A stretch of DNA of 64,000 nt. Source: a virus. The position numbers and the translations under genes are program-made. The DNA is taken from the IMG/VR virus record IMGVR_UViG_3300042396_000450, positions 32,001 through 96,000 of that record. The stretch is one strand, 5' to 3'. Below the pieces are notes generated by a model, which made no database searches, was not told the origin of the DNA, and saw only the letters and a program-made list of their open reading frames with translations. How positions within the stretch are numbered: the stretch's first letter is position 1; every line of letters begins with the position of its first letter. This document shows positions 2-64,000 of the stretch, piece after piece.

Positions 2-283
2 AATGACACAGGAACAACCAGAAGTTCCTACGCTATAGATTTAGCGGCATTAATTGAGATATATGGTGGTGTTGAGAATGCACTACTACTAGTTAACTCA
101 CTAGATGATCTGGAGATACATGATCTGATTAATCAGACAACTGAGTTACGTAAAGATCCATCAGTTCGAGATGCTGAGGAAGTAGAAAGAGATTGGAATG
201 ATTATGTTATTAATAATGATCTAGATCAGGAGATAATCGTAGACGGTAAGAAAACAAGTATAAATCAATTAATGGGGTTCTAA
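2..283 (+). CDS. 3' part of a gene directly upstream of the tape measure gene (possible tail assembly chaperone)
   Basis: Open frame from the window edge (NDTGTTRSSYAIDLAALIEIYGG...SINQLMGF). Its TAA overlaps the TMP ATG (TAATG). Function inferred from position only. Confidence 0.55.
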   Translation, partial: NDTGTTRSSYAIDLAALIEIYGGVENALLLVNSLDDLEIHDLINQTTELRKDPSVRDAEEVERDWNDYVINNDLDQEIIVDGKKTSINQLMGF

Positions 284-3200
284 TGGATCAATATAATCAA
301 GACGTTAACATTAACTTCCAAGGTGAAGATAATATAAGTGGAGTTATTGATAAAGTTAATGAGAAAGTTGGTTCATTACAATTCAAGATAATGGCACTTA
401 ACATAGGGTTAGGTGCATTTGGTAAACAGTTATTTACTAACTCTGATAACTTAGCTAAGTTTACTAAGGTTCTTGGTACAACTGATGTTCTATTAAATAA
501 GACATTTGCAGTAACTGGAGTAGTTAAAGTATTCTCAATACTAGGAACTGGTATTAATGATGCGAAAGCTAACTTAGATAGATTTAATGATGGATTGAAA
601 GCAATGCAAGCTAGTGGACTTGATATTGGCATTATTACGCAATTCACGCAATTACAAGATGCAGTATTAGGAAGTCGTAATGCTCTAGATTCATTTAGTT
701 TAACTGCATTAACTACATTTAATAGATTCAATAAAGTTAAATCAGAAGTAGCTACATTGTTTCCTGAGAATGATCCATTTATTAAGAATCTATCTACTAG
801 TATTCAGAAACTAGTTAATGAGGATCTTAAAAATGCAGTAACTAGTATTGACGCATTAAAAGCTAGTTATGAAGCTGCGTCGTCTGGTTTTACTGAAGCT
901 GCTGATAACCAAGCTGTAATGACAGCAGGACTTAAATTAGCTAAAGCTGGTGGTGCTGATACTGGAGCAACTATGAAGGTACTTGCTCAAACTATTAGTG
1001 CTTATAATCTGAGTGCTGGTGATGCAACTAAAGTTAGTGCAGTTCTAAATCAAACTGTACAATTAGGTGTAACTACAATACCAGAATTAAGTAATGGTTT
1101 TGCTCAAGCAGCAGTAACAGCTAACGCAGCTAAGATTAAATTGCAAGAGTTAGGTGCTGCTGTAGCAACATTAACATTAAAAGGTTTTGACACAAACAGT
1201 GCATTAACAGGTATTGAATCATTATCGCGCGTAATTATCAGCAAAACTCCTCAAGCTGCTGCTGCATTGCGAGAATTACGTGATGAAGGTGGTAAACCAA
1301 TTAGATTTGACGTTAGTGAAATAAAAGCTAAAGGTCTTACTAAAGCAATACAGGATTTAAATATAGCAGCTAAGGGTAACGTTGAAGTAATTCGTGAAAT
1401 AATTGCAGATTCTACTTCTTATAATACTTTCTTAGCATTAGCAGCTAATAACTCTGAGAAATTGGGTGAATTTACTCAGAAGATGTTTGATGTTAGTAAA
1501 ACAGGTGAAGTTGCACGTAAAGCATTAGATAGTGTATTTGGAATTAAATTAAATAACCAAGCTGAAACATTCGATGCAATTGTAAATAGAATAACTGAAC
1601 AATTCATACAATTTGGTGAACAGTTAGCTCCATTCTTTGACACTGGAGTTAAAGCATTAGAAACGTTCACTAAAACATTATCTGGAATTAGTCCAGAAAT
1701 GAAGAAGACTATAGCATCAATATTGCTAGGTCAATTAGCATTTAATAAAGTAACTGATACTATTGGTATTTTAGTTGGAACTATAACTAAAGCATTCTTA
1801 GCATATCAAGGTTTGCGAGTAACCTTGATGTTCATGAATGGAACTATAGGTGAACAGTTCAACTTAATTAATGGATTAATTAAAACTAAAGCAGGATTAG
1901 TTCCCGTAATTAAACAGTTAATGGGATTTGATCAATCACATCTATTAATACAAACTAAATTAAATACAGTTACTAAAACTAGGGGTGAATTGCTTAAAGC
2001 TGTATTTACTGGAGAAGGTGATAGATTAACTAACCTTAAACAATTAGTTGGTTTAGAGAAACAATATGAACTTAATGTAGGTGAGTTAAACAAAACATTA
2101 GATGGTAGAAATAAGATACTTGATAATCAAGTAGATAAAGTTAATGGAGTTATTAAAGCAACGGCTAAAGTAAAGGATGCTGAAGCTACAGCTAACTCTA
2201 TTAAACAAGAAGGTCTACAACTATTAGATGAGTTAGAGATATCTAATGCTAAACAACTTGATATTAAAACTAAATTAATTAAGGTAGAAGATGATCTTAA
2301 ATTAGGTGGTTCTAATACTGTTGCATTACAGAAGGAATCAATACTACTTAATAATCAATTAACTAATTCACTTGATGAACAACAACAACTACAAGAGTTA
2401 ATTAACGTAAATAACGTTAAGTATGGTGATGCAACTAAAGCATTAGTAACATCAGAACTCGCACTTGATTCAACTAGACTTGCAGCTAAGGAAAGACTTA
2501 GTGTTATAGTTACTAAACAATTAGCTATTGAACAACTGCAAGCTAACTTAACTATCTATAATGAGAAAGCAGTTAAGTTATCTACTGCTGCTGAGTTATT
2601 AAGAACTAAAGCTAAAGTTGATTCTGCCAACGCTTCTATTTTCTTACAACGTGCAGAGTTTCTACAAACTAAATCAACTGAATATGCAACGTTAGCAACT
2701 ACAACTCAAACTGCTATTATCGCTGGTAATGCAGAAGTTAGAAAACTTAAAATAGCAGCATCATTAGCAGAACAAGTTGCTGATGGTAATTTAATTAAAG
2801 TACAAGTAGGTTTAGGTACTAGTTACATTGCTAATAGTTTACTAACGAGAATACTGTTCTTCGATATTACTAATTTAGCTGGAGCTACTAAAGCAGTTAG
2901 TGTTGCAGGAACTGGATTTGCAGGTGTAATTGGTGGTTTATGGACAACATCAATTGGTATAGCTAGTGCAACATTAAGATTCCTAGATGCTCAACTTACA
3001 ACACTGTATCTTAAATTAGCTCCATTTACATTAGCGTTAGCTCCCATAGCAGTAGCATTAGGATTAATTGGTACTATTGGTTATGAAGCATTCTTCGGAA
3101 TGACAGGTCAATTAAATAACTTAAATAAAGAATTAAAAGAATTAGATAAACAAGGACAACTTAATTTAATACGTGAATTAGATAAATTACAAATTAATAA

Positions 3201-6708: not shown

Positions 6709-6751
6709 CGTAGCCACTGATATAATAAGTGTAATTAATAAGTGATTAAAT

Positions 6752-8277: not shown

Positions 8278-8351
8278 CCAAACCTGGGCTAATGGTAAGC
8301 CGCCTCTTTTGGGAAGAGGACATCATGAAAGTTCAATTCTTTCGGTTTGGA
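8278..8351 (+). tRNA. tRNA-Pro(UGG)
   Basis: Acceptor stem CCAAACC/GGTTTGG plus A73. D arm GGCT-AATGGTA-AGCC. Anticodon arm CCTCT-TTTGGGA-AGAGG. T arm GAAAG-TTCAATT-CTTTC. CCA not encoded. Confidence 0.93.
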
Positions 8352-8376
8352 TTGTTTGTGACATATATTGCCTCCT

Positions 8377-8406
8377 AACTCAAGTATTAGCGTACTTGAG
8401 TTTTTT
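8377..8406 (+). terminator. Intrinsic terminator after the tRNA
   Basis: CTCAAGTA-ttagcg-TACTTGAG followed by TTTTTT. Confidence 0.85.
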
Positions 8407-8413
8407 ATTATCC

Positions 8414-8442
8414 TTGTCATTTTGAAATAAAGGTACTATACT
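8414..8442 (+). promoter_or_regulatory. Sigma70-type promoter for 8470
   Basis: TTGTCA, 17-nt spacer, TATACT. Confidence 0.6.
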
Positions 8443-8469
8443 TTAAACAGTAGTCACAAGGTTAATAAT

Positions 8470-9324
8470 ATGAGTGAGATAACTTACGCACAATCTTATA
8501 TTGGTGAAGATGATATTGAATTGTATGTAACTAACGATGGTAAAGTTACAGGAGTTAGTCTATCAGGACTTGCTAAATTATGTGGTGTAACTAGAAAAGC
8601 AATAAGTCAAGTTACTAACAGCTTAACAGCACCCGGAACGAATACATACCCGAAATCGCTAGAACCCTTAGCTGGTAAGGTTTTTAACCCGGAAGTAACT
8701 GGAGAACGAGGTGCAAAAATAGTAATGGAAGATGTTGCAATTAGAATAGTTGAGTATTACGCTTATGAATCTAGAGTTAAAACAGATGTAGCTAAAACTA
8801 ATTTTCGTTTGTTAGCACAGAAAGGTTTAAATGCTTATATTAAAGAACTTACACCAACTGATAATGTAACATCAGTTAACTTAAATGACATTCAGAATAC
8901 ATTAACTCAACTTCTATTAAAGGTAGATGAGAATAATAAACAACTACTTGAGAATCAACAGATAGTAGTTGAATATAAACAACTTAGAAATACAACAGTT
9001 ACTATTATTCCAGGAGTAGATAAATTATTAAACGATTATTTAGAATTAGATAGTGATTTAACATTAACATCTAGTGATAGAATACCTTTAACTAAATGGT
9101 TAGAAGTTGAGAAAGGTTGTACATTAGATAGAAAAACACTACATAAGTTAGCTCACTTAGTTAGTGGTGCTTATAAGTCAACCACAAATAAAGAACCAGT
9201 TAGAGGTACATTTGTTAAACGTATTGTTAATGGTAAGAAAAAAGTACAAGCTAATACTTGTTTATATTCGTCAGATGAATTTCCAATATTAGAGATGGCA
9301 TTTAATAATTTAATGGGGGTTTAA
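8470..9324 (+). CDS. Antirepressor-like DNA-binding protein (paralogue of 31711)
   Basis: LYVTNDGKVTGVSLSGLAKLCG aligns with FYISNDGKQTGISISGLERLLG of 31711. Shared C-terminal WL..KG..L...HLV...YK..T.K.P block. Confidence 0.65.
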   Translation: MSEITYAQSYIGEDDIELYVTNDGKVTGVSLSGLAKLCGVTRKAISQVTNSLTAPGTNTYPKSLEPLAGKVFNPEVTGERGAKIVMEDVAIRIVEYYAYESRVKTDVAKTNFRLLAQKGLNAYIKELTPTDNVTSVNLNDIQNTLTQLLLKVDENNKQLLENQQIVVEYKQLRNTTVTIIPGVDKLLNDYLELDSDLTLTSSDRIPLTKWLEVEKGCTLDRKTLHKLAHLVSGAYKSTTNKEPVRGTFVKRIVNGKKKVQANTCLYSSDEFPILEMAFNNLMGV

Positions 9325-9327
9325 GTT

Positions 9328-9714
9328 ATGAATAATCAATTAGTTAAGTTAAGTAAAAAAAATAATATAGTAGCGGCATTTATTGAACATTACAAATTAG
9401 GATTAATAGATTACAATGTAATGCTAAAACAACTAACGTTAACTTTATGGGAAGTTACAAACACATTAATTGATGAATTTAAGTTACGTAAAGTAATTGA
9501 TCCAATTCAATTAGTTAAATTAGATGATGTTCAAATTGAGTTAGAATACCTCTACTTAATTAACTACATTCAACCTCATTTAGAATGTTTAGCTATCTAT
9601 ATGAAATCACATGAGGTAGAAGTAAACACAATTAAAAGTTATATTATTAATAACGATAACTTAAATGAAGTTAATATTGATGATATAACTATGTTAAATA
9701 ACTTACTATTTTAA
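9328..9714 (+). CDS. Hypothetical protein
   Basis: 128-aa ORF in tandem with 8470. Confidence 0.55.
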   Translation: MNNQLVKLSKKNNIVAAFIEHYKLGLIDYNVMLKQLTLTLWEVTNTLIDEFKLRKVIDPIQLVKLDDVQIELEYLYLINYIQPHLECLAIYMKSHEVEVNTIKSYIINNDNLNEVNIDDITMLNNLLF

Positions 9715-9719
9715 ACAAC

Positions 9720-9854
9720 ATGATTAACAACAAATTAACTGGTACTTTAGTTACAGATAAACTAGTACCTCTATATGATAAAGATAACAAGTTAATAGGT
9801 TACTTTAATAATCCATTAGCAGATCCTAAGTTAGTTAAAGAAGTATTTAAATAG
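9720..9854 (+). CDS. Small hypothetical protein (44 aa)
   Basis: MINNKLTGTLVTDKLVPLYDKDNKLIGYFNNPLADPKLVKEVFK. Ends just before a terminator. Confidence 0.45.
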   Translation: MINNKLTGTLVTDKLVPLYDKDNKLIGYFNNPLADPKLVKEVFK

Positions 9855-9858
9855 ATAA

Positions 9859-9894
9859 AATAAATCCACTAGCAATTAAGTTAGTGGATTTATT
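9859..9894. terminator. Bidirectional terminator between convergent gene blocks
   Basis: AATAAATCCACTA...TAGTGGATTTATT inverted repeat. Confidence 0.7.
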
Positions 9895-9968
9895 AGTATG
9901 TTATTTATCTCGTCTGTTAAGCTTCGCCATTAACAATAGATAAACTAATCTAGATATGCCATTATATC

Positions 9969-10148
9969 TCATACGTAACTAACTCTAACTATCTCACAGT
10001 TAACATATCTACTTTTAATTACATTACCAGCTAACTGATGATTACACTTCTCACGATTAACAGTTACATTAACTAACTCATTAGCACCAATACACCAATG
10101 TCCATCTGATTTAAGATAGTTAAATTTAACATCATATTGTTCAATCAT
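9969..10148 (-). CDS. Small hypothetical protein (59 aa)
   Basis: MIEQYDVKFNYLKSDGHWCIG...RVSYV. ATGA overlap with the dps stop. Confidence 0.5.
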   Translation of the reverse strand: MIEQYDVKFNYLKSDGHWCIGANELVNVTVNREKCNHQLAGNVIKSRYVNCEIVRVSYV

Positions 10149-10684
10149 TGCAAGTGCTTCTCTATTAAATAAACAAACTTAATTAACGTAGCTGCTAATT
10201 CTAATAATGTATTAGCATTAACTCTATCACCATTATCATCTAAATCATTACTACAATCAGTAACTTCTTTAATAACGTAAGAAAATAGAGTAGCTAGTTT
10301 AGTGAGACATTCATTACTATCACTACAACAACTGATAATATCAACGTTAGATAACTCAGTTGTATTACAACTAATAGTAGCATTACCTCCAAATGCTACT
10401 ATAACTTCAGCAATAACATCAACATAACTATCTAACTCACTTTGAATATCATCTAACATACTATGAACTGCTTTAAAGTTCATACCTTTAATGTTCCAAT
10501 GACTTATTCTAGTTAAGTTACGTAAATCAAACAGTAGATTAAGTAACTCACTTAACTTAGTTACAGAATGGGTGCGGATCTCAGGACTAATTAATAAACT
10601 AGTTACATTAGGAGTATTAGTAACTGTAGTTGCTGCAAATGTAGATAATCTTCTGTTAGCTAATGCTTCTTTAATCTTATTCAT
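10145..10684 (-). CDS. dps: Dps-family ferritin-like DNA protection protein
   Basis: SHWNIKGMNFKAVHSMLDD...YVDVIAE...FGG ferroxidase signature. Confidence 0.88.
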   Translation of the reverse strand: MNKIKEALANRRLSTFAATTVTNTPNVTSLLISPEIRTHSVTKLSELLNLLFDLRNLTRISHWNIKGMNFKAVHSMLDDIQSELDSYVDVIAEVIVAFGGNATISCNTTELSNVDIISCCSDSNECLTKLATLFSYVIKEVTDCSNDLDDNGDRVNANTLLELAATLIKFVYLIEKHLQ

Positions 10685-11160
10685 CTATTGTCACCACTAC
10701 CTTTTAATGTGTTGTTTACATCACGTTTAGTTAACTTAGCTACGTTAATCTCAATTAACTCTTCTGTAGTTAAATTAAGTTGTTTTAATTCATTTATTAT
10801 AAAGTCATGATAACTAAGCAGTGTAAATACACAATCAGTTGTATTATTATCACCTCTATATAGTCGCTTTAAAAATCCCGCTAACTGCAATGATAATTCA
10901 CTAACTGATAATAAATTATCAAACTCAAATTTTAAAGCTGATTTTAATGGAGGAAATCCTACTTTATTTAAAGCTAATACTAAATAAGCTAGTACGTCAC
11001 CTAACTCTTTTTTCTTACTTAACTCATCATCTGCTAAATTATATTCATTAAGTTCTTCTATTAATCCTGCAATATAAACAGTCAATTTGCTTCGCTCATC
11101 TGCAATTGCATACTTATTACTAAATTCAATTAACCAAGTTGAGTATTCATTTAAGTTCAT
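10681..11160 (-). CDS. MazG-like NTP pyrophosphohydrolase
   Basis: GLIEELNE...KKELGDVLAY, and a C-terminal INVAKLTKR...LKGSGDNR typical of phage MazG. Confidence 0.8.
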   Translation of the reverse strand: MNLNEYSTWLIEFSNKYAIADERSKLTVYIAGLIEELNEYNLADDELSKKKELGDVLAYLVLALNKVGFPPLKSALKFEFDNLLSVSELSLQLAGFLKRLYRGDNNTTDCVFTLLSYHDFIINELKQLNLTTEELIEINVAKLTKRDVNNTLKGSGDNR

Positions 11161-11663
11161 ATAATTTCACTAATAAGTCCTAATTCTAAAGCTTGTTGTG
11201 CAGTTAAATATGTATCTTTCAACATCATATTGCTAGTTAACTTAGTGTCTTTATAACACTCCATACAATATGACTCTAATTTATCCCACCAATCAATTAC
11301 ATTCTTAGTTCCAGTTAAATCATGCTTAATACTACCTCTTAATTCATGTACCATAAATGTTGTATAACTACTACACTTACTAGTAGCTGCACATAATAAT
11401 AATGTACCACCACTAGCTACATAACCTTCTGCAATAATAGTTATATTAAGTGAACTACGTTTAATAACTTCATACATCTTAAGTGAACTAGTTACACATC
11501 CACCATAACAATCTAGATAAATAGTAATTGATTTATCAGCAGATGATTTTAAATTAGATTCTAATTCACGCAATAGATAAACAAACTTAGTTGATGATAA
11601 GTTATTAATGTTTCCAGTAAAATATAAATCAGTACCTTTATAGAAGCATTCAAATTCGGACAT
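11157..11663 (-). CDS. clpP: ClpP-like protease
   Basis: ITIYLDCYGG, GYVASGG (catalytic Ser), FMVHE (His), DTYLTAQQALELGLISEI. Confidence 0.85.
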   Translation of the reverse strand: MSEFECFYKGTDLYFTGNINNLSSTKFVYLLRELESNLKSSADKSITIYLDCYGGCVTSSLKMYEVIKRSSLNITIIAEGYVASGGTLLLCAATSKCSSYTTFMVHELRGSIKHDLTGTKNVIDWWDKLESYCMECYKDTKLTSNMMLKDTYLTAQQALELGLISEII

Positions 11664-11799
11664 TATCTACCTCATTTATTAACTTAGTTAACTTATCTTC
11701 AATAATAACTACACTATCATCATCATCTACACATCTCATCTACACTAAACCATTCTAATTCTATTACTTGTTTCTTACTCATACTTGTTACACTTGTAA

Positions 11800-12312
11800 T
11801 TGACGGAGTTATACACTTTAATTAACATGACTTGCGAATTATCAACAACTAGTTTAATCAAGAATCTATATATAGAATGTCAAACACCTATATTAGATCA
11901 ATTCAGCATAACTAATAGAGCTACATTTAATAGTGTTAGTTATTTAGTTATTCCAGTTATATCATCTAATTATACTAGATTATTAACCGAACGATCAGAA
12001 TTAGTAGATACATTAAATACCGCATTTATTAGACCTAAACCTGTGCGAGTTGGATTTACTGTACGTATAGTTAACAATGATTGGAATGTACATCGTTGTC
12101 TAGAGTTTCTAGCTATTAGTAGTGTTACTAGTAGTTACAATAACTATATTCCAGTAACTGTAATTGATTATGTGCGACCTGAAGTAACTGATGCTACTGC
12201 TACAGTTCGTAAAGGTATGCTAACTTTATCTGCTGGTAATGGTAGAACTGGTAACTATACTGAAGATTATGAGATTACATTTAATGAAATAACTAAACGA
12301 GTGATAATGTAA
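11800..12312 (+). CDS. Putative tail protein (true start probably ATG 11828)
   Basis: Late-strand ORF before a large beta-rich structural gene. Confidence 0.45.
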   Translation: MTELYTLINMTCELSTTSLIKNLYIECQTPILDQFSITNRATFNSVSYLVIPVISSNYTRLLTERSELVDTLNTAFIRPKPVRVGFTVRIVNNDWNVHRCLEFLAISSVTSSYNNYIPVTVIDYVRPEVTDATATVRKGMLTLSAGNGRTGNYTEDYEITFNEITKRVIM

Positions 12313-12329
12313 AGGACAAAGTCAACATT

Positions 12330-14993
12330 ATGTTTATTCTTACTAATACAGATTTACCGGAATTAGCAACTACATACTATAACAGTTGTATTAATAGCAT
12401 TCTTAAACAATCAACTAGTTTAACTAATAGTGGTTTAATATCGAAGCTATTTAGTAATGTAACTACAACTATTACAACTGTAACTGCGAATAATAATGGA
12501 ACATACGAATTAACTACAGATACATTACCTGATTTAATAACAACTACAAATGGAACATTCACATTAGCTAAGGATATTAATAACCCTGTTAATGGTGAGT
12601 TTATTTACATTAATAATAAAGTAGTTATTTATAGTGCAGTTAATTTAATTAATGTAACTGTATTTAGTTCACCAATAGTTAATTCACTTAGAATACCTAC
12701 TATAAATGGATTAGCAGGATTGCCAGTTCTATCTAACATAACTATTAGTGAATCATTTCAAGATCATCCAACTGCATCTATTAGTTTAGTTACTAGCGTT
12801 AATTACATTGCTCAAGTTAGAAGTCTATTTAGAGTAAGTAGTTTATTTAATCTCAGTAAATATCAGTTTGTAGTTAATAGTTATAATGAAGAGTTATCTA
12901 GTGATGATGATATATTAAGAGTTAATATTAACCTGCGCGGAAAATGGGATAACTATGTTAATTATCCAATAGCACTTAATAATACAACTGATATTAACAA
13001 TAACTTTCAAGATCCAGAATGTTCAATTGATGCAACTGAAATAGCTAAAACTAAGAAGTACGTAACTATTAATGAAGTTGCTGCTAAAAGTGGAGCTAGG
13101 ATAACTGGCATTGAAGGAACTGTAATTGTAGATAAATCAGATAATAATGCAACTGTAACATTAGGTAGTTTAATTAATGAATACCTTGATATTAATTCTG
13201 CATTTGTTGATTACAATAAACCTGATGTAATAGTATGTAGAAAACTTAATGCTGTTACTAGTTGGACATATAATAGTGATAAGATATTAAGTAACTTTAA
13301 TACTACTATTAATCGTAATTTACCATTACCAATTAACGGTAGTTACGGATCAATCAATAACAACATCAGTTACACATCGTTAGTTCCAACAACTATAACT
13401 AATCGTGTAACATCACTAACTGCTGAAAATACATTTATCATTCCATATCCAACTATCTACAATTACACAACTCCTGATAACTTTAATGACGCTGGTAATA
13501 TAGTTATTGAGGAAGCAACTAAGGATATACAATCTAAGTTTGAAAATCGTAAACCAGTTAAACGTACTTATATTAAAGGTGATTTAGATGCAGCAACTTG
13601 TCCATCTAACATAACTAGACTTAAAACACTTGATCTTAATCATGATAAGAGTGGTGTAACTAAAACTATCATAGATATAACTGAAGAAGATAATAATCCA
13701 ATAAGTGAAGTTACGCGACGTTATGGATTTGCATATACAGCATGGGATATAACATTAATTAGTGGTGAAAGTATTGAATTAGATAGTGCTGCTACTAATT
13801 GGTGGACACTAATTGAAGAAACTAAAACTACATATAACTATGATAATAAAACTGGATATCTACTTGGTTATGATTTAACTGGACGTAAACTAATTCGCGC
13901 CAATATAGAAGGTGATGATAGATATACTCAAGAATATCAACTTGCAGTTAACGATGGTGAAACTCCATCTAGTGCGGATACTGCAACTTATAACACTTAT
14001 CAATTTAAGTTTGTTCGTGTTACAGGAGCTAAGAGATATGAGTTAGCTCAACATAGAGATTACTATCGTCAATTTGGACAACAATCTAAGTTTATTAAAC
14101 AATGCAATAAAGATGGTTCTAGTAGTTATGTAGCAGATCCAACTTATATTGAACCTATGTTTGTAATAGCTGAAGCAGAACAATATAGTTGTTTCTTAAG
14201 TGTTGATAATCCACTTAATTTAGAACGCGAATCAGGAGATCCAGTTGAACCACCATTAACTAGTGGTCAGGAGACATATAATAGAACATTCCTTAAAATA
14301 CTATCATCTAAGAATAGTGCTAAACAACAGAACTTCCGTAGTGACTATCAAGGTGAAGACACTTATATCTCATATACAAGTAACTTTACATCACAAGATC
14401 CTGGATTTCGTGCAGTTACTGAAGAAACAAGTAGTTCAACTAATACAGGAATACCACCTGTACATACTCGTAAACCACCTAAATATGAATTAATTGAACC
14501 TAAGAAAGAAGAAGATAAAGTTACTAATAATTATAGATATGTTTATTGGACAACCCCTTATACTGGTGGTTATCCTAGAACTGGTAGTTATAACTTCGAT
14601 AAAGCTAAGAATATAAATGAAGTAACTGCTGCTGTTAATAATCAACTTAGAATAGATGATATTAGAAATACATTAACATCAACTATGACTATTCCATATA
14701 ACGATAGTATTACAACTGGAGATAAAGTAACTGTTATATTTAATGGTTTACAATGTCGAAGACGAGTAGTTAGTATAACTCATTCTATAGAACAAGAGGT
14801 TACTAATGTTGGTATTGAAACTACAGCAGTAACTAATTTAACTATGGGTATTGATAGAGATATTAGTGTTAGTAGTAAAAAAGAAAAGATAGTTAAACCC
14901 GTTAAACCAACACCTAAAACCCCATCTGATGTTTATGCTGAAGGATTTAAATTAGGTTCATTATTACCAAATACACTAGGACGTGGATCATGA
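12330..14993 (+). CDS. Putative baseplate hub / tail tip protein
   Basis: 887 aa, T/N/S-rich. C-terminal TMTIPYNDSITTGDKVTV...RVVSITHSI resembles hub-protein ends. Confidence 0.55.
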   Translation: MFILTNTDLPELATTYYNSCINSILKQSTSLTNSGLISKLFSNVTTTITTVTANNNGTYELTTDTLPDLITTTNGTFTLAKDINNPVNGEFIYINNKVVIYSAVNLINVTVFSSPIVNSLRIPTINGLAGLPVLSNITISESFQDHPTASISLVTSVNYIAQVRSLFRVSSLFNLSKYQFVVNSYNEELSSDDDILRVNINLRGKWDNYVNYPIALNNTTDINNNFQDPECSIDATEIAKTKKYVTINEVAAKSGARITGIEGTVIVDKSDNNATVTLGSLINEYLDINSAFVDYNKPDVIVCRKLNAVTSWTYNSDKILSNFNTTINRNLPLPINGSYGSINNNISYTSLVPTTITNRVTSLTAENTFIIPYPTIYNYTTPDNFNDAGNIVIEEATKDIQSKFENRKPVKRTYIKGDLDAATCPSNITRLKTLDLNHDKSGVTKTIIDITEEDNNPISEVTRRYGFAYTAWDITLISGESIELDSAATNWWTLIEETKTTYNYDNKTGYLLGYDLTGRKLIRANIEGDDRYTQEYQLAVNDGETPSSADTATYNTYQFKFVRVTGAKRYELAQHRDYYRQFGQQSKFIKQCNKDGSSSYVADPTYIEPMFVIAEAEQYSCFLSVDNPLNLERESGDPVEPPLTSGQETYNRTFLKILSSKNSAKQQNFRSDYQGEDTYISYTSNFTSQDPGFRAVTEETSSSTNTGIPPVHTRKPPKYELIEPKKEEDKVTNNYRYVYWTTPYTGGYPRTGSYNFDKAKNINEVTAAVNNQLRIDDIRNTLTSTMTIPYNDSITTGDKVTVIFNGLQCRRRVVSITHSIEQEVTNVGIETTAVTNLTMGIDRDISVSSKKEKIVKPVKPTPKTPSDVYAEGFKLGSLLPNTLGRGS

Positions 14994-49193: not shown

Positions 49194-50006
49194 CTATTTA
49201 ACTAAATCTACTCGTTCTCCTAGAAACCCATATCGTTCAGCTTCAGTTTCCATTTGTTCCCAATCGAACTTAGCATTATCATAGTAGCAATTAACTAAGT
49301 TCTTCATTTTATCCCAATAGAACATTACAGCATCATCATTAAGATAATAGATAAATGGTGATCTGCAAGTTTCAGTAACTCCAATAATATATGCGTTACT
49401 TACTTCATGAATGCAATTAGTACGTTGATTTATAGCAGCACAATAAGCAGATAATTGTAAGTAGTACCCAATTAGAGGATAATACTTACCACCATCTTTA
49501 GTTTGTGCAACTGGATATTTAGCTCTATTCCAGTTTTTCCAGTCCGCCACTGAATTAGATGAAGTAATAACCCCACTATCTCTACCAATGAACTTAGTGG
49601 TATCTACATTGCCGCACATATCGTATGTACCAGCAAATCCACGTCCAGTAGCTTCATCTACCCAATATGTCTTCTCTTCAACAGCTATGGGAGTTATGAA
49701 ATCAAGTACAGGTAGAAACTTATTGAAGAATACATCATCACTTGTTTGAGTTACGCTTGTTTTCTTACTCTTATAATAATCCTCGATTAATTTATGTACC
49801 TCAGTACCACGAGTTGCAGCAGTCTGTGTTATTTTATTAGCTTCAGCTTCACCTACACTAGCACGCCATTTAAGTAATCCCTCTTTAGGTTTAGCGTAGT
49901 TAATTAATGTAGTAACTGATTTAAATTTCTTAGTTGTTCCATCTAATTGATATGAACGACCTTCTACTTCATCATTTATTTGAGTTAACATATTAGTCTT
50001 ATACAT
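49194..50006 (-). CDS. PD-(D/E)XK exonuclease
   Basis: SVTT, RGTEVH, AGTYD, ADWK, LQLSAY. Confidence 0.85.
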   Translation of the reverse strand: MYKTNMLTQINDEVEGRSYQLDGTTKKFKSVTTLINYAKPKEGLLKWRASVGEAEANKITQTAATRGTEVHKLIEDYYKSKKTSVTQTSDDVFFNKFLPVLDFITPIAVEEKTYWVDEATGRGFAGTYDMCGNVDTTKFIGRDSGVITSSNSVADWKNWNRAKYPVAQTKDGGKYYPLIGYYLQLSAYCAAINQRTNCIHEVSNAYIIGVTETCRSPFIYYLNDDAVMFYWDKMKNLVNCYYDNAKFDWEQMETEAERYGFLGERVDLVK

Positions 50007-50032
50007 ATTAAATATAAGACTAATATATCACA

Positions 50033-50371
50033 TTACTTGGATTCTAAATGGAAATTATGAAATATACCAAGACGACCTATATCGTAAGAAACAGAGATGG
50101 ATGACTTAGTTAATAAATCACCAAATTCACTGTAACTAACTTGATATTCATGTCGTTCATTAGTATCATCAACAACTACAATAGTGTACTTATCTGAACA
50201 ACTTTCACCTAGATAGTTACCGCTACCATCGGAGTTAGGTGTACATGATTCCTCATGCCACTTATCAACTAGTACACCATTAATATTAGTGTGAGTTAAT
50301 TCAGATGCGTCAATTGCAGTACAACTAAATACAGTTAATATTACTATTATTAGATTTAGTATTAGTTACAT
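50033..50371 (-). pseudogene. Signal-peptide / lipoprotein-like gene with a stop at codon 2
   Basis: ATG TAA, then LILNLIIVILTVFSC..., open for about 110 codons. The ATG overlaps the SSB stop. Confidence 0.55.
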
Positions 50372-50790
50372 TAATAACCACCACTAACATCTTCTTGTTG
50401 TTTAGCTACATTAGGCATTACTTTAGCTAGATGAAAGAAGTGATTAACCTTAGTATCTTTATATGCTTTACCTTCATATTCGCGTACTCCATTAGTAATC
50501 ATGCCATGGAATACAACATTATTACCCTTCTTGAATACTAACTTCTCAGATGGTGGTTTCTCAATAGCATCTAGAAACTCAGTAGATGCGCCACCGTTAT
50601 CCCAGATTGTGAGATCATAAAAATCTACAATGTTCTCATAATCACCCGCTTCATTTTTCTTACTTCCTGCGTTAGCTGCAATCTTAATCTTTGCAGTACG
50701 CTTCTCACCTTTAGGCTCAATAACAATATCTGCTACTAAACGTCCAGCAATTGTAGATTCAGTACCAGATAGATAAAATTGATAAGCCAT
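50371..50790 (-). CDS. ssb: Single-stranded DNA-binding protein
   Basis: IAGRLVAD, IAAN, DFYDLTIW, KKGNNVVFHG OB-fold pattern. Next to the exonuclease. Confidence 0.75.
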   Translation of the reverse strand: MAYQFYLSGTESTIAGRLVADIVIEPKGEKRTAKIKIAANAGSKKNEAGDYENIVDFYDLTIWDNGGASTEFLDAIEKPPSEKLVFKKGNNVVFHGMITNGVREYEGKAYKDTKVNHFFHLAKVMPNVAKQQEDVSGGY

Positions 50791-52741: not shown

Positions 52742-52987
52742 TTAAACAACTCTAACACCTTTTAACTTATCAATTAACTTATTATCTATATCATAATTTA
52801 GATAATCAGACACTTGTTCACTTAATACATCTAATTCTCCAACTAAACTAGCTAAATGAGATAAGTATCTTAACTTATCGTTAGTTGTAGTACCAATTCT
52901 ATCTACATTAGCTAAGTTAGCAATAGATGTAGCAAACTTAGATATTGCATTTAATGTAACTTCAAGTTGATTATCGTTCTCTATCAT
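52742..52987 (-). CDS. Hypothetical protein
   Basis: 81 aa; MIENDNQL..T N-terminus. Confidence 0.55.
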   Translation of the reverse strand: MIENDNQLEVTLNAISKFATSIANLANVDRIGTTTNDKLRYLSHLASLVGELDVLSEQVSDYLNYDIDNKLIDKLKGVRVV

Positions 52988-53835
52988 TAGAAATTAACTC
53001 CATGTCCTACGTTAATAGTGAATAGTCCATTATCCCGCCACATTCTTAATACCTGTGGTCTATCATCAATTACAGCATGAACATTATAAACATTCTTGAT
53101 ATACGCTTCATATATCTCCTGTTTAACTACACTATCCTTACGTTGATCAAGTTCAGCACGCATATACAACGCATCATATCTAATGTTATGTTTATCTAAC
53201 CAACTAATAGTCTGATCTTTCCAAGTATCCTTACGTCCTGATACTAATACTATTTTATTACTTGGATAATACGACTTATATAACTCATAGACTGGTTCAT
53301 TAAGTAGGTCATCCTCGCACGTACTAGCATCATAGGGATTACGACCATTAAGTAGACTTAGAGTACCGTCAAGGTCAATTATGACGCAATCTGGAAGACC
53401 TTCTATTCTAGCTGCACTAGGAGGATCAACATACAGATATTTATCGTACATACCACGAATAACAGCTTCACCTACTGAGTTAGTTCGAGTTAGATCACGT
53501 TTAATGCACTCAGATAGAGGAACGGTAAGAAAACTATCATTGATGATTAATTCAGCTTTACCTTCAATTAATGCGGCAATTCTAGTCTTATGCTTTGGAC
53601 AAAGGTGCGTATTATCAAGTATCACATTATACCCATTACTAAGTGCCTCTAGTATTAGTAATTCCTCACATTGAATAACAAACTTCTCATTTTTCTTACT
53701 GTATACGCCGTTGTCCATCATGGTGCGAATATCGTCTTTATTAATACGCTTCCATCCAGGTACATCGGTAACTAATTGTATAGCGTATGTAGTTTTACCA
53801 GATCCAGGTAAGCCAACTGTCATAATTACTTGCAT
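52987..53835 (-). CDS. pseT: Polynucleotide 5'-kinase / 3'-phosphatase (T4 PseT-like)
   Basis: GLPGSGKTT...RINKDDIR kinase, and DLDGT...SGR...DDR HAD phosphatase. Confidence 0.93.
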   Translation of the reverse strand: MQVIMTVGLPGSGKTTYAIQLVTDVPGWKRINKDDIRTMMDNGVYSKKNEKFVIQCEELLILEALSNGYNVILDNTHLCPKHKTRIAALIEGKAELIINDSFLTVPLSECIKRDLTRTNSVGEAVIRGMYDKYLYVDPPSAARIEGLPDCVIIDLDGTLSLLNGRNPYDASTCEDDLLNEPVYELYKSYYPSNKIVLVSGRKDTWKDQTISWLDKHNIRYDALYMRAELDQRKDSVVKQEIYEAYIKNVYNVHAVIDDRPQVLRMWRDNGLFTINVGHGVNF

Positions 53836-54902
53836 AATTTCATCAACTCCTCAAAATTCTTTAACAACAACTTAGATAGTGCTTCTTTAACTGACTTACT
53901 ATGACCATCTCTAATTGAGAATAGGATAACTTTCCATTTGATGTTAGAGATAGCTATTGCAAACTGTTTCTTATCGGTGATTTTAGCGAACTCATTTAAA
54001 TCATGTTCAATTAACTCACATAACTTATTGTATTTAGTTAAGTAGTTATTGTAGATGCTACTAAATTCATGGAAGTAACTGATAAACTCATTACCTTCAC
54101 CTGTTCTAACTAACTCTAATATGTCACGTTTGGTAACGCTTGATTTAATCCTATGATATTTAACATAATCATCGTGTTTTAATTTAACTCGTTTCCAAGT
54201 ACACCATTCTACTATTACATAACCTTCATTATGTAATCCATCTAACTTAACTAACTCATCTCTAACTTCATCTATAGTTAAACCATATTCAAGATAGTCA
54301 ACTAACTTAAACGAAGTGAACTTAGGTTGTGCTATCGACTCCTCACGTAATGTAGTTCTATTTCTAACTCCAATTAAAGTTAATGAGTTACTACTATGTG
54401 ATACAACTACTGGATTAAATGGTGTACATAACTCAAACATATACGTATAGTTAACATCAAAGTCATCTAATTTATATGATTCTTGCATAAATACAGTCCA
54501 TGCAAGTTCAGCAAATGTAACACTATAATCAAGTATAGTTCCACCAGCATCAGGAGATCCAGTAGTTGCAACTAACCATTCATCATTGTAGTAATACATA
54601 ATGATTAGACTGCCATCTAACTTCTTATAAGCATAAGAGTTATCGAAGTCTATTTCTGCTGCACATGATTCACCATAGTTATAGAATCTATCAAATGGAT
54701 ATGCTACAACATTCCAATCATTAGCTTCATCTAATATTAATCCGCGACATTCAGTTACTATTGGATGATAATAGGGTGATGTAACATTCCAATAACATAA
54801 TCCAACTAGATTAGGATATTTAGTATGTCGTCTAACTTGTATTCCTAATTCGGCGGTTAAGTCTTTTAATGACTTAGTTCGGAGATATTCTTGTACTAGC
54901 AT
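53826..54902 (-). CDS. RNA ligase (T4 Rnl1-like)
   Basis: ECRGLI, PFDRFYN, KLDGSL, FEL, EGYVI, RVKLK. Confidence 0.9.
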   Translation of the reverse strand: MLVQEYLRTKSLKDLTAELGIQVRRHTKYPNLVGLCYWNVTSPYYHPIVTECRGLILDEANDWNVVAYPFDRFYNYGESCAAEIDFDNSYAYKKLDGSLIIMYYYNDEWLVATTGSPDAGGTILDYSVTFAELAWTVFMQESYKLDDFDVNYTYMFELCTPFNPVVVSHSSNSLTLIGVRNRTTLREESIAQPKFTSFKLVDYLEYGLTIDEVRDELVKLDGLHNEGYVIVEWCTWKRVKLKHDDYVKYHRIKSSVTKRDILELVRTGEGNEFISYFHEFSSIYNNYLTKYNKLCELIEHDLNEFAKITDKKQFAIAISNIKWKVILFSIRDGHSKSVKEALSKLLLKNFEELMKLCK

Positions 54903-55123: not shown

Positions 55124-55366
55124 TTAAATTTCGCTAACTACATCATATCTAGATTTAAAAGAATTGTATCTTCTAGGTTCTAGATGAAATGATGGTAACT
55201 CTATTAATCCACGACATTCATGATAGACATAATTAGGACTTGATTGGCGAGATTCTACAACATGGATAACCTTAAATCCCGCATCATAAATTAATATAAG
55301 TCTATATGGATTGCCGGATCTATCGTTATTACGACTAATTACTTGATATGCTACAGCATCGTTCAT
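55124..55366 (-). CDS. Hypothetical protein
   Basis: 80 aa; ND.SGNP.R. Confidence 0.55.
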   Translation of the reverse strand: MNDAVAYQVISRNNDRSGNPYRLILIYDAGFKVIHVVESRQSSPNYVYHECRGLIELPSFHLEPRRYNSFKSRYDVVSEI

Positions 55367-56193
55367 ACAGGAATCTTCTTAGTTGCAGGTACAACTGGTA
55401 ATGGATTACTACCTAATGATGTGAATATCTTATCCCAATGTACAGTTAACTCTTTAGTTGTTGGATCTAATTCACTAATCACAAATTCACTATTACGTAA
55501 ATGTTCACTTCTAGCACCAGTAGCAATATTAGATTCATCAGTAAGAAAACTAATTATATTCTGATTCTTATTTTTCTTACTACGATACATATACCCAATA
55601 GCATCGGCGTTAGCTACTGTGTATAATTTAAGACTTCCTGTTAACTGAATATCCTTCACATCTAACTCTGTTTTCTCATCAGACGTTACTTTAATGTGAC
55701 CACTGAGAATAAGAGCTTTACCTGCTAAACCTTTAAATGGTTCAACGATGTCAATAAATGCCCGTCTAAGTAGACCATAACCAGCACCTTTAGGTAACTC
55801 AGTTACATCCTTTCCCGTGAAGTTCTTACCAATAGGCGACTTCTTATACTCGAATGTAGCCTTAGCAAGAGCAAGTGCTTCAATTGCAGTTAATGTATCA
55901 AGTGCAATGTAATCATATATGGGTTTACCAGCTTTAACGTTTTCAGCTTTAATTAACTTAGCTGTTTCTTCTAATAATGAACCTAAACCAGTACCGCTAG
56001 TAGCAGCTTCTTTGCGTAAGTTAAGTTTAGTACCATCATAATATTCACTACCATCTTCTAGGTCAATAAGTAGACTATTAGGTAATTTAAGTAAATTTGA
56101 CGACTTACCTATTTTGGTATTACTTAGTAACACTAAAATACGTGGATCTGTATTAGCTGCAACTGTACTTGTTCTTGGTAATATTAAAGCCAT
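55363..56193 (-). CDS. AAA_24 / Sak4-like ssDNA-annealing ATPase
   Basis: KIGKS, LLIDLEDGS, IALDTLT, GAGY..LR, ILSGH, ADAIGY. Confidence 0.8.
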   Translation of the reverse strand: MALILPRTSTVAANTDPRILVLLSNTKIGKSSNLLKLPNSLLIDLEDGSEYYDGTKLNLRKEAATSGTGLGSLLEETAKLIKAENVKAGKPIYDYIALDTLTAIEALALAKATFEYKKSPIGKNFTGKDVTELPKGAGYGLLRRAFIDIVEPFKGLAGKALILSGHIKVTSDEKTELDVKDIQLTGSLKLYTVANADAIGYMYRSKKNKNQNIISFLTDESNIATGARSEHLRNSEFVISELDPTTKELTVHWDKIFTSLGSNPLPVVPATKKIPV

Positions 56194-56930: not shown

Positions 56931-56932
56931 AC

Positions 56933-57205
56933 TTATCTCTCAACAGTTACAGTTAAACCTTCAGCTACCAATTGATCTCTACTTAATTCAGCAAACGGTT
57001 CGGTATATTCTCCTATTAGAGCTTTACCATTAAGATGAGCATCCATCATAATTTGATAACTCTTATCATTACTGAATCCCATAACACTACTTAATATCTC
57101 TACTACAACTTCAGCAGGAAATATGCTGTCATCATGTAGAATCAACTTAACCATTGGAGCATTGTTAACAAATGTAAATGGCTCTCTATCTAATACTGCA
57201 TTCAT
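56933..57205 (-). CDS. clpS: ClpS adaptor
   Basis: KLILHDD...EVVVEIL...IMMDAHLNGKALIG.Y...AE...L...GLTVTVE. Confidence 0.85.
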   Translation of the reverse strand: MNAVLDREPFTFVNNAPMVKLILHDDSIFPAEVVVEILSSVMGFSNDKSYQIMMDAHLNGKALIGEYTEPFAELSRDQLVAEGLTVTVER

Positions 57206-58958: not shown

Positions 58959-58994
58959 AATTAAAATGGGGTAAATTAATTACCCCAACTAAGG

Positions 58995-59857: not shown

Positions 59858-59860
59858 AAG

Positions 59861-61433: not shown

Positions 61434-61435
61434 AA

Positions 61436-62790: not shown

Positions 62791-63901
62791 TACGACCTTC
62801 TCTCATAGCTGCAATATCCCATCGTTCAGTTGTATTGCAAGTGAAGATTGTAATGATTTGAGGTAAACGAGTTTGTTCAAATGGTGTAATAGCTGTATAG
62901 ACATTACCATCTAACCAAGATAACATCTTCTCAGTTGCGCCATCATTATTAGATGTCCGACTTGGAGCTATGTTATCTGCATCATTAACAACTATGGCTA
63001 TTTTAGATAGGTATGCTGGAGGTGTAAAACTTCTCATACTAGCACTATCCATGTTGATGATGATGTAACCTAGTTTAGATAACACTTCCTTACAATAGGA
63101 GTTACTCCAACTAGTTTTACCAACACCGGGTTCTCCAGTTAATATTACATTGAGTTTATTAATCTCACCTAACTCAAGTTGTTTAACTTTATCATTAATA
63201 ACATTAGTTAATTCAGCATTATTAACGAAACTACTTAATTCATAGTTAGCATTAGGATAACCAATTTGATAATTATCACTTGTTATATAAGCTGCTAAAT
63301 TAGATGCAGCTTTATCAATGTAACTATGTAATGTAGTTTCATCAGCAAAACTAACTCTAATACGCGGATTGTCCCCATATTGAGTATGGATAATACACGT
63401 TGCGTTATCCCATTTAACTTCGATAGTTCCAACTAAAGTTAACTTAGCAACATCTACATTAACATCATGTGATAGAAATACTCTACGACTATCATCCCAT
63501 ACGTATTGAATAATACTATTAGGTAGACCAAGTAAATTAACTATTCGATAGATAATACTTAATTGAAGTAGGTCTAATATGTGAGGTTTATTATTGCTAT
63601 TATTAACCTTCCCAGTATTACGAGTTGTATCATCTACACTAATGTAGTAGAACCCACCTTCATCTTCGATATTACACTTACTAGTTTCAACGATGAACGT
63701 ATCCCAACTATCAGATACAGTTTCGCTAAATAGAGCAATAATATTAGCTATAGGATGTCTAGTTACATTGAACAATTCATTACTAACTGTAGATATAAAC
63801 TTACCTGCATTCCAGAGATTAATGCGCGATATATCAATCTCAGGAGTGAATATTTCCCAACCTTCAGCTACTAGTTGAGCAATTTCTGTTTGTTTAGACA
63901 T
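62756..63901 (-). CDS. AAA+ ATPase
   Basis: GEPGVGKT, VVNDAD, TCN, D.A..REGRID arginine-finger region. Confidence 0.82.
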   Translation of the reverse strand: MSKQTEIAQLVAEGWEIFTPEIDISRINLWNAGKFISTVSNELFNVTRHPIANIIALFSETVSDSWDTFIVETSKCNIEDEGGFYYISVDDTTRNTGKVNNSNNKPHILDLLQLSIIYRIVNLLGLPNSIIQYVWDDSRRVFLSHDVNVDVAKLTLVGTIEVKWDNATCIIHTQYGDNPRIRVSFADETTLHSYIDKAASNLAAYITSDNYQIGYPNANYELSSFVNNAELTNVINDKVKQLELGEINKLNVILTGEPGVGKTSWSNSYCKEVLSKLGYIIINMDSASMRSFTPPAYLSKIAIVVNDADNIAPSRTSNNDGATEKMLSWLDGNVYTAITPFEQTRLPQIITIFTCNTTERWDIAAMREGRIDFNYPFVKEG

Positions 63902-64000
63902 TTTAATTCCTTTTTCTTACGTTGTTTAAATAGTGACTTGAATTTGCGTCGTCTACTCATTAATCAATGATTCAAGTTTCTGTTTAGCTTCAACAGTTTT

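Follow-up and report, generated by a model that had tools for sequence, protein, structure and literature searches.

A nine-base word evenly spaced on each strand of a phage genome: very probably a selected signal, and possibly one for replisome start or loading

The stretch of 64,000 nucleotides analysed here (the window, positions 32001–96000 of the 111,623-bp phage genome G000, which is related to viruses infecting filamentous cyanobacteria) repeats the nine-base word GTAAGAAAA on both strands. This raises two questions. First, is the word a signal in its own right, or a product of chance, of coding or of the host? Second, if it is a signal, what reads it and for what act? The window holds 52 exact copies. 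Those on the plus strand, spanning 246–61595, number 24 as originally predicted, and start at 246, 3785, 4921, 7474, 9233, 10277, 15131, 20140, 22514, 25630, 28229, 31319, 36429, 37575, 40294, 42149, 45131, 46856, 48098, 51979, 53525, 55541, 58132 and 61587. Those on the minus strand, which read TTTTCTTAC on the plus strand and span 2639–63920, number 28 rather than the 25 first counted, and start at 2639, 6460, 11010, 15461, 16085, 17280, 24700, 27286, 28720, 29144, 30972, 33484, 35217, 36309, 37227, 38498, 39533, 42428, 46051, 47608, 49760, 50655, 53691, 55572, 59463, 61365, 62547 and 63912. The whole genome carries 87 copies (42 plus, 45 minus). The gap already remarked at about 11.0–15.1 kb lies at 11,018–15,131 and is the sole large gap in the window; with 4,121 bp, it is also the biggest in G000.

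The density of the word far exceeds every expectation calculated. Dinucleotide shuffles of the window gave 1.48 ± 1.29 copies with a maximum of 5, and Markov models of orders 0 to 4 predict 3.0, 2.8, 1.5, 1.3 and 2.5 copies in G000, against the 87 observed. A synonymous-codon shuffle, which retains all protein sequences and the codon usage of G000, gave 21.0 ± 3.0 copies (maximum 30), 13 of these ~21 being the intergenic copies that the procedure leaves unshuffled. Chance or composition as the origin of the density is ruled out by these three kinds of null, and the enrichment persists under the Markov and codon-aware corrections that the original prediction had named as decisive. Runs of at least four A, suspected to be scarce, reach 0.39 of the number that independent bases would give in G000, and 0.33 outside the word.

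The word is asymmetric and sharply bounded. Its one-mismatch variants stand at background (47 observed, ~48 expected), with the exception of GTAAGAAAC, found 9 times against 1.6 expected. The proposed 3′ extension is real and reads H-W-R-R, a weaker, purine-rich tail from which C is nearly absent; a site carries information over ~16 nt. In G000, 44 copies lie sense and 30 antisense within genes, and 13 are intergenic. A protein motif is rejected, since copies stand in both orientations and in each of the five stop-free frames. A promoter, ribosome-binding site or terminator is rejected as well, because orientation follows no rule and the sites have no hairpin nearby; the original prediction had excluded protein motifs, promoters and ribosome-binding sites from the variety of frames and orientations. 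Nor does the word force rare codons upon the genes, AGA, AAA and GTA all being common in G000. A full-text literature search for the words themselves returned no match, and searches for phage words that are over-represented or regularly spaced gave no account of such a pattern.

The arrangement of the copies becomes clear when each strand is considered by itself. In G000 each strand is evenly spaced, with about 2.6 kb per site, and the coefficient of variation (CV) of the spacing is 0.51 on the plus strand and 0.69 on the minus strand, compared with ~0.97 for random placement; in the complete relative G001 the values are 0.70 and 0.74, again versus ~0.97. The regularity that was to be looked for is thus found strand by strand. 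Permutation of the strand labels gave P = 0.0007 in G000, and in G001 no shuffle was equally regular. Same-strand pairs less than 400 bp apart are depleted (3 versus 13.3 expected in G000, 9 versus 31.6 in G001), whereas opposite-strand pairs at that distance are at chance (10 versus 13.6, and 41 versus 32.1). Rotating the sites of one strand against those of the other reproduces the combined pattern, and therefore the two strands are mutually independent; pairing or alternation across strands as a feature of its own is rejected, being explained by this rotation null. Plus and minus copies are interleaved over the whole of G000 with no point at which the skew switches. In the phage-like region of the Scytonema contig C247 the word is present and even spacing is absent. 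The per-strand spacing together with the same-strand repulsion indicates, as far as sequence can, that GTAAGAAAA acts in one orientation only, and the simplest way in which it could be so read is on unwound or single-stranded DNA.

This bears directly on one of the functions first suggested, namely duplex-DNA binding sites for a phage nucleoid, condensation, partition or packaging protein. The word is dispersed genome-wide without large gaps, its A-tract could bend DNA, and an HU-like gene is present. Such a binder, however, should be blind to strand, which disagrees with the regularity on each strand, the repulsion within a strand and the independence between strands; the even spacing of each strand alone disfavours a nucleoid or partition protein that simply binds the duplex. 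Moreover, the HU-like gene and the Bro-N and Rha antirepressor-like genes of the phage also occur in the related phage CL131, which is without the word. We consider this explanation quite improbable. The proposal that the antirepressor-like paralogues are the readers loses its support for the same reason, and no evidence was found linking the two basic proteins, also put forward as readers, to the word.

Comparison with relatives shows that the word is conserved at some sites and exchanged for another dialect at others. Two dialects exist, GTAAGAAAA and G-R-T-AGAAAA(A), and their distribution follows the TerL tree. In L053, a 90%-identical relative, only 1 change falls in 72 word positions against 7.3 expected (98.6% conserved; P ~0.006 by our own Poisson estimate), and 7 of the 8 covered copies are retained. 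The distant L009, of the same dialect, retains 2 of 8 mapped positions, and G001 shows its own dialect in the same orientation at 6 of 27 orthologous positions against 1.5 expected (P ~0.003 by our own binomial estimate). Four copies illustrate this. The minus-strand copy at 17280–17288, inside a gene for a 1033-aa structural protein, is kept in three lineages: position 49280 (minus) of G000 corresponds to 15120 (minus) of L009, with the same word, and to 51239 (minus) of G001, which reads AGATAGAAAAATAT. The plus-strand copy at 15131–15139, just downstream of the large terminase gene, is conserved in L009 at 13070 (plus). The minus-strand copy at 50655–50663, in the gene for an SSB-like protein, is the sole changed one among the eight covered in L053, and the orthologous position in G001, 82242 (minus), reads GGTAGAAAAA. 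At 20140–20148 on the plus strand, G000 has gagGTAAGAAAAaat (Q-E-V-R-K-N-I-I) and G001, at 54551 and in the same codon register, has gaaGGTAGAAAAaat (S-E-G-R-K-N-I-I), so that a Val/Gly difference tracks the dialect.

Is the word then borrowed from the host? Among 401 cyanobacterial genomes, none exceeded its own reversed-word control. Within the Scytonema assembly G003, high density of the sister word is confined to the phage-like 22–155 kb of contig C247, and the chromosome outside that region is not enriched. The reservation that the motif might be a known host repeat therefore does not hold for the genomes searched. The word is not common to the wider phage family either: only the palindrome HIP1 was found in CL131 (whole genome, 209 copies) and in PaV-LD and Nodularia phage 2AV2 (first 50 kb of each). 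A tie to the DNA-polymerase family is likewise rejected, 19 distant polymerase relatives in IMG/VR being without an iterated word. G000 itself has zero copies of HIP1 (GCGATCGC) and zero of CGATCG. These results also weigh on the idea that the word is a functionless by-product, either an iterated word of host type that the phage has copied or the trace of biased mutation or repair. CL131, by mirroring HIP1, and the Scytonema-associated phage region, which carries HIP1 at host-like density, speak for it; yet neither the 401 genomes nor the Scytonema chromosome offers an enriched model to copy, biased mutation would not yield even spacing or repulsion on each strand, and the one-mismatch variants are about as frequent as expected. 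We regard a by-product as very improbable indeed. The data themselves show that the word is enriched, evenly spaced strand by strand, owned by the phage, split into dialects and under purifying selection, and GTAAGAAAA is, with high probability, a selected, strand-specific signal owned by the phage. The core of the original prediction, a DNA-level cis site under selection, is thereby borne out by the nulls, the relatives and the host comparison. Its list of functions is narrowed by the strand specificity and by the change of dialect between sister lineages.

The genes shared by the phages that carry the word suggest where a reader might be sought. The clade-wide replication module consists of a DnaB-like helicase with an extra winged helix, a tandem-OB protein, PolA, an exonuclease and an SSB-like protein; no homologue of it was found in CL131. 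The helicase (42892–44679, minus strand; 595 aa; matches to PF13481 and PF03796) has an additional C-terminal module of a winged helix and a small β-barrel, placed at residues ~360–440 and 534–581 in an AlphaFold model (pLDDT 74) whose best Foldseek matches are DnaB. Its orthologues are present in G001, C247, LDNO (LDNO01000001.1) and L054, and none was found in CL131. The recognition helix of the winged helix (RLNDM) is identical across dialects, and no dialect-tracking residues were seen in this domain. Between the helicase and polymerase genes lies a 172-aa protein (42417–42935, minus) modelled as a tandem OB-fold (pLDDT 81), with the Thermus thermophilus two-OB SSB, 2cwa_A, as best structural match (Z 9.7, rmsd 3.6, 137 aligned) and conserved in G001 and C247 (44% identity); by its model it is probably a single-stranded-DNA-binding protein. 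The DNA polymerase (39547–41774, minus) is divided into an exonuclease part (40980–41774) and a polymerase part (39547–40983), both matching phrog_1252, which in G001 are fused as a single 698-aa ORF. The exonuclease (49194–50006, phrog_298) and the SSB-like protein (50371–50790, a weak match to PF00436), spanning 49194–50790 on the minus strand, are common to G001 and C247, and so is a RuvC-type Holliday-junction resolvase (23135–23620, minus; PF02075, 2.8e-19). A Sak4-like RecA-fold annealing protein is encoded at 55363–56193 (minus; phrog_124, PF13479). For primases, no match at E ≤ 1 was obtained in G000 with Prim-Pol (PF09250), DNA_primase_S (PF01896), DnaG_N (PF08275) or Toprim_2 (PF13155), and none in G001 with PF09250, PF08275 or PF13155; hence a known kind of sequence-reading primase is missing.

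The explanation that we favour, tentatively and at somewhat less than even confidence, is that the phage replisome uses GTAAGAAAA as a signal to start, or to (re)load for, discontinuous DNA synthesis; the replisome as reader, and priming or loading as the act, are what we infer from the pattern. On each strand, selection would hold a copy every 2.6 kb or so regardless of gene or frame, and the word would mark where priming occurs or where the DnaB-like helicase loads or pauses. With an even grid on both strands, the template of the lagging strand would always be near a usable site, whichever direction the fork takes, and the per-strand spacing fits the size of Okazaki fragments. The ~16-nt span of the site, free of nearby hairpins, and the shared replication module, not found in the word-less CL131, fit this reading as well. 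A replication protein of the phage would act as reader, the winged-helix/β-barrel module of the helicase being one candidate and the adjoining tandem-OB protein a second; alternatively, a host primase recruited by the DnaB-like helicase could read the word. Five points count against a replication reading: no primase was found, bacterial DnaG enzymes are not known to read more than trinucleotides, the RLNDM helix is invariant, phages that share only the polymerase family lack the word, and the C247 region is unevenly spaced. A more specific proposal, which we put forward as speculative and hold to be unlikely in all its parts together, is that a cyanophage clade with no recognisable primase writes a strand-by-strand replisome start or loading grid, read by the helicase module or the tandem-OB protein, and that word and reader co-evolve into the dialects GTAAGAAAA and G-R-T-AGAAAA.

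The missing primase can also be turned to a different account, in which the word directs a strand-specific chemical mark, that is, a programmed nick or a base modification on one of its strands. Programmed single-strand nicks occur in phage T5 and in phiKMV-like phages, and since no primase was found in G000 or G001, the 3′-OH ends of nicks would be a useful alternative that could also prime strand-displacement synthesis. The asymmetric word without a halo of one-mismatch variants would suit a mark, and G000 encodes nucleotide-metabolism proteins, namely a thymidylate-synthase-like protein of unusual length, DHFR, a dNMP kinase and an HD phosphohydrolase. On the other side, none of the three main DNA methyltransferase families (PF01555, PF02384, PF00145) gave a match in G000 or G001, and among the proteins scanned none could be recognised as a nickase, the HNH and GIY-YIG families lying outside the genome-wide search. 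Chemical marks, besides, need no even spacing, and the known nicks of T5 are confined to one strand. Paired nicks close together risk double-strand breaks, and therefore the lack of avoidance between opposite-strand copies 50 bp or less apart (5 versus 4.0 expected in G001) is weak evidence against T5-type nicks. Both the mark and its proposed use in priming seem to us decidedly doubtful.

A signal that is asymmetric, set out per strand and without a long gap on either strand is also what would be expected if a translocating helicase–nuclease, of host or phage, were switched by the word from degradation to recombination in one orientation, as by Chi. This would protect circularly permuted linear phage DNA, and aid circularisation or recombination-dependent replication. 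G001 closes on itself via an exact overlap of 127 bp, compatible with a permuted genome, and the exonuclease, the Sak4-like and SSB-like proteins and RuvC form a recombination set. Among 31 host-order genomes, 5–7 gave weak partial AddB-like matches. However, all characterised Chi words are, as far as we know, over-represented in their own hosts, whereas GTAAGAAAA is enriched in 0 of the 401 cyanobacterial genomes and the sister word is not enriched in the Scytonema chromosome beyond the phage-like region. RecC (PF04257) was found in none of 61 genomes from the order, nor in G003, which is also without an AddB-like match, and no sequence-reading nuclease was recognisable among the phage proteins scanned. 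A Chi-like signal is in our judgement unlikely, and its role in protecting or circularising the phage DNA unlikely to the same degree.

If the replisome-start reading is true, replication start points would be hard-wired in the genome of these phages, a constraint that we know of in no textbook model of replication, and start sites would override the choice of codon and even of amino acid, as the Val/Gly switch at 20140 suggests. To our knowledge, the principle of sequence-guided loading or priming has so far been seen only in double-stranded-DNA pumps (FtsK/KOPS) and nucleases (Chi). Whatever its reader, the word is a signature separating phage DNA from host DNA, and phage lineages from each other.

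Several known systems can be set beside GTAAGAAAA; no paper was found on genome-wide even spacing combined with dialect switching. Chi of RecBCD or AddAB resembles it in being short, asymmetric, active in one orientation, placed within genes in any frame and useful only within reach on the right strand. The differences are that none of the candidate host genomes searched has an excess of the present word, that neither RecC nor a clear AddB turned up in the host order, and that the word is A/T-rich, 9–11 nt long and ~3–4 times denser than Chi of E. coli, which occurs roughly once per 4.5 kb. The uptake sequences of Pasteurellaceae (USS) and Neisseriaceae (DUS), like the word here, occur at about one copy per kb, in both orientations and mostly in genes, are more evenly spaced than random, and form dialects in sister lineages, partly at orthologous positions. 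They belong, however, to the genome of the competent cell and are read on the duplex at its surface, whereas GTAAGAAAA is phage-confined, at background level in hosts and organised by strand. Primase sites, like GTAAGAAAA in the reading that we favour, are words of the template strand that would set the start points of Okazaki fragments, and the spacing here is Okazaki-sized; known primase words are shorter, though, at 3 nt or up to 8 nt, and none of the primase families searched was found in G000. The T7 gp4 primase, for example, recognises 5′-GTC-3′ with flank effects (PMC8599759). The KOPS/SRS sequences read by the γ domain of FtsK/SpoIIIE offer a different likeness, an asymmetric 8–9-mer together with a hexameric RecA-fold motor bearing a C-terminal winged helix, which here would be the DnaB-like helicase, judging from its model. 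KOPS, unlike GTAAGAAAA, are skewed towards dif and guide a pump of double-stranded DNA, while the present word is equally common in its two orientations throughout, and the motor in question is a replicative helicase. Finally, HIP1 is a highly iterated short word in cyanophage genomes of the same family, as in CL131, but it is a palindrome common to the host, whereas GTAAGAAAA is asymmetric and confined to the phage.

Exact copies of the nine-base word GTAAGAAAA number 52 in the window (24 on the plus strand and 28 on the minus strand), compared with 1.48 ± 1.29 in dinucleotide shuffles. The phage genome under study, G000, is a single contig of 111,623 bp (CheckV completeness 92%) that encloses the window as bases 32001-96000; the word is by far its commonest 9-mer, with 87 copies (42 plus, 45 minus). 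Markov models of order 0, 1, 2, 3 and 4 predict 3.0, 2.8, 1.5, 1.3 and 2.5 copies, respectively, and a synonymous-codon shuffle, which preserved all proteins and the genome codon usage, gave 21.0 ± 3.0 copies, 13 of which are the untouched intergenic ones. The enrichment claimed in the original prediction thus persists against both the Markov and the codon-aware null. The boundaries of the word are sharp. Its 27 one-mismatch variants total 47 copies, with about 48 expected, and the sole outlier among them is GTAAGAAAC (9 copies compared with 1.6 expected). On the 3′ side there is a weaker tail, H-W-R-R, in which C is nearly absent, and a purine (R) is favoured at position -1. The copies lie in sense (44), antisense (30) and intergenic (13) context and use all five stop-free frames, the codons within them are common ones in G000, and a search for hairpins beside the copies in G000 found none. 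The codon usage of this genome is extremely narrow, with TTA, GTT, ACT and AAT codons dominating, and the hexamer AGTTAA/TTAACT has 638 copies, about 8 times the independent-base estimate.

G000 is a distant relative of siphoviruses that infect filamentous cyanobacteria, its named kin being Aphanizomenon phage CL131, Planktothrix phage PaV-LD and Nodularia phages. Because CL131 (MG209611.1, 112.8 kb) is rich in the cyanobacterial iterated palindrome HIP1 (GCGATCGC, 209 copies) and holds GTAAGAAAA once, GTAAGAAAA was tested as a possible mirror of a host word. Among 401 cyanobacterial genomes its count never exceeded about two-fold that of the reversed-word control, and the top density was about 45 per Mb, compared with 780 per Mb in the phage; the possibility that the phage merely shares a host repeat is therefore not borne out in any of them. 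Chi-like control of a nuclease, which we rank second and consider unlikely, is opposed by this lack of enrichment in host genomes and by the failure to find a reader. A search of 61 genomes from the host order gave no RecC, and AddB-like matches in that order were weak and patchy.

A Scytonema assembly (Scytonema sp. NUACC26, 11.3 Mb) holds one contig, C247 (155,752 bp), that carries a relative with 45% TerL identity. Near zero over the first 10 kb of this contig, the sister word TAGAAAAA stays sparse until about 22 kb, in a stretch of 41-42% GC that contains a periplasmic-binding-protein gene, and from there to the end each 5 kb holds 2-10 copies, in most cases 5-8. The region from about 22 to 155 kb, some 130 kb, is phage-like, and cellular genes stand on the same contig; at the junction neither an integrase nor a tRNA could be recognised, and the region represents a prophage or else two sequences joined in assembly. 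Across the whole assembly GGTAGAAAAA has 153 copies, compared with 63 for the reversed-word control; among the first 100 matches listed, 80 are dispersed across contigs C1-C246 and at least 20 fall inside 34 kb of C247.

The word comes in dialects. Near-identical contigs (L004, L005, L052 and L055) keep the copies of G000, and the same word is used by two more distant relatives, L009 (LDNO01000001.1, 43% TerL identity; 12 copies per 22.9 kb) and L054 (39% helicase identity; 7 per 10.8 kb). The complete relative G001 (117,113 bp, a circular assembly via an exact 127-bp overlap) has GTAAGAAAA 3 times, AGATAGAAAAA 64 times, AGGTAGAAAAA 48 times and TAGAAAAA 172 times, a dialect also seen in L006 and L010; the dialect of C247 is G-[G/A/T]-T-AGAAAA. 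When aligned on GAAAA, every dialect reads G-N-N-A-GAAAA, with variation confined to the middle dinucleotide (TA, or R/D-T). The TerL tree agrees with the dialects, the G000 and LDNO clades sharing one and the G001 clade having the other, with C247 as a deep branch. No such word was found in CL131, in the first 50 kb of PaV-LD and of Nodularia phage 2AV2, or in 19 distant polymerase relatives. As for the assemblies themselves, the ‘direct terminal repeat’ of G001 in IMG/VR is the exact 127-bp overlap of the contig ends and resembles a k-mer overlap left by the assembler in a circular assembly more than it does a repeat physically present at the termini. L005 (IMGVR_UViG_3300034122_003121) follows G000 at 99% identity as far as 8330; its 5.6-kb tail (8330-13916, 36.6% GC) does not match G000 at the nucleotide level, lacks the word and has normal A-runs, and may be recently acquired foreign DNA or a chimeric assembly.

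Individual copies are under constraint as well. Between G000 and L053 (89.9% identity over 11.3 kb), 7 of the 8 covered copies are intact, and 1 of 72 word positions is changed, compared with 7.3 expected (Poisson estimate, P about 0.006). When the G000 copies were placed on G001 through protein alignments, 6 of 27 mapped positions held the G001 dialect in unchanged orientation, with 1.5 expected (binomial estimate, P about 0.003). At window position 20140, where G000 has GTA-AGA-AAA (V-R-K) and G001 has GGT-AGA-AAA (G-R-K), the encoded amino acid tracks the dialect, and a copy at 17280 is common to G000, L009 and G001. The majority of the remaining copies stand at other positions in relatives, and density and spacing are therefore better conserved than single positions.

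Pooled over both strands, the copies in G000 are more evenly spaced than random (CV 0.69 compared with 0.98, P = 0.0004), and the per-strand CVs are 0.51 (plus) and 0.69 (minus); the corresponding values for G001 are 0.70 and 0.74. Permutation of the strand labels (P = 0.0007 in G000; no shuffle equally regular in G001) demonstrates that the per-strand regularity exceeds what thinning of the combined positions would give. Orientations alternate above chance (P = 0.0008 and 0.0006), and rotating the sites of one strand against the other reproduces both this alternation and the combined CV, so that the two strands are mutually independent. Same-strand pairs at most 400 bp apart are depleted (3 compared with 13.3 expected in G000; 9 compared with 31.6 in G001), and opposite-strand pairs show no such avoidance (10 compared with 13.6 and 41 compared with 32.1, respectively). 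The regularity is a property of each strand; in the phage-like region of C247 it was sought and was absent. Binding sites for a duplex-binding nucleoid protein, one of the functions originally proposed, fit these strand data poorly and are improbable, and a by-product without function, which leaves the spacing unexplained, is more improbable still.

A-runs at least four bases long that lie outside the word have, relative to the independent-base expectation, a ratio of 0.33 in G000, 0.59 in G001, 0.95 in the phage region of C247, 1.43 in its host flank and 1.38 in CL131. The more regular the grid, the stronger the depletion, which suggests that near-cognate A-runs are harmful.

What, then, reads the word? 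Non-structural genes common to G000, G001 and C247, for which no homologue was found in CL131, comprise RuvC, DHFR, ClpS, ClpP, a family-A-like polymerase, an exonuclease, an SSB-like protein, a DnaB-like helicase, a 172-aa protein of no assigned family and two more small proteins of that kind. The helicase is modelled (pLDDT 74) as a DnaB match followed by a C-terminal winged helix and a small β-barrel, and the recognition helix of the winged helix is invariant across dialects. The adjoining 172-aa protein is predicted to be a tandem OB fold, its top match being the two-OB SSB of Thermus (Z 9.7). Primase families were sought in G000 and G001 without success. Two overlapping ORFs encode the DNA polymerase (window 39547-41774, minus strand), one carrying the exonuclease part and the other the polymerase part, where G001 has a single ORF of 698 aa. 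Also on the minus strand, the ClpP-like protease (11157-11663) and the ClpS adaptor (56933-57205) are kept in G001 and C247, and a Thg1-like tRNA-His guanylyltransferase (45848-46576), a polynucleotide kinase-phosphatase (52987-53835) and an RNA ligase (53826-54902) make up a tRNA/RNA repair set.

Nicks or modification at the word rank third, and we regard them as rather less probable than the Chi-like alternative; DNA methyltransferases of the three main families were sought in G000 and G001 and not found. A thymidylate-synthase homologue (26371-27345; 324 aa compared with a family model of 266 positions), DHFR (24104-24583), a dNMP kinase (29120-29683) and an HD 5′-deoxynucleotidase-like protein (31031-31624), all on the minus strand, may simply supply dTMP or may hint at a pyrimidine modification. 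The 32%-GC genome G000 has only 4 copies of GGCC and none of GGWCC, GGNCC, GAATTC, CTGCAG, GGATCC, CGATCG or HIP1, where for some of these avoided palindromes a rough independent-base estimate expects tens; such avoidance is consistent with a host that has many restriction systems.

The logic of a single orientation, a spacing of 1.7-2.6 kb per strand that is of the coverage type, and the ownership of the word by the phage, with co-evolution of its dialects, together indicate that the word is probably read on one strand, with coverage needed on each strand. We tentatively rank first, at somewhat less than even chances, that it would serve as a start or loading signal for the replisome, since the copies are spaced at about the size of Okazaki fragments and the genes specific to the clade belong to replication. 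This proposal has real weaknesses in that no primase was found and no residue was seen to track the dialect. Our literature search found no paper on GTAAGAAAA or on such a grid of evenly spaced words. The word TGTGGGCA, of a phage group with NrS-1-type primases, is named here beside crAss-like phages for comparison and not as evidence. HIP1 itself is present at 34 copies in 12.4 kb of a metagenomic relative, L012, and this count and that of CL131 imply that iterated words differ greatly between the branches of this phage family.
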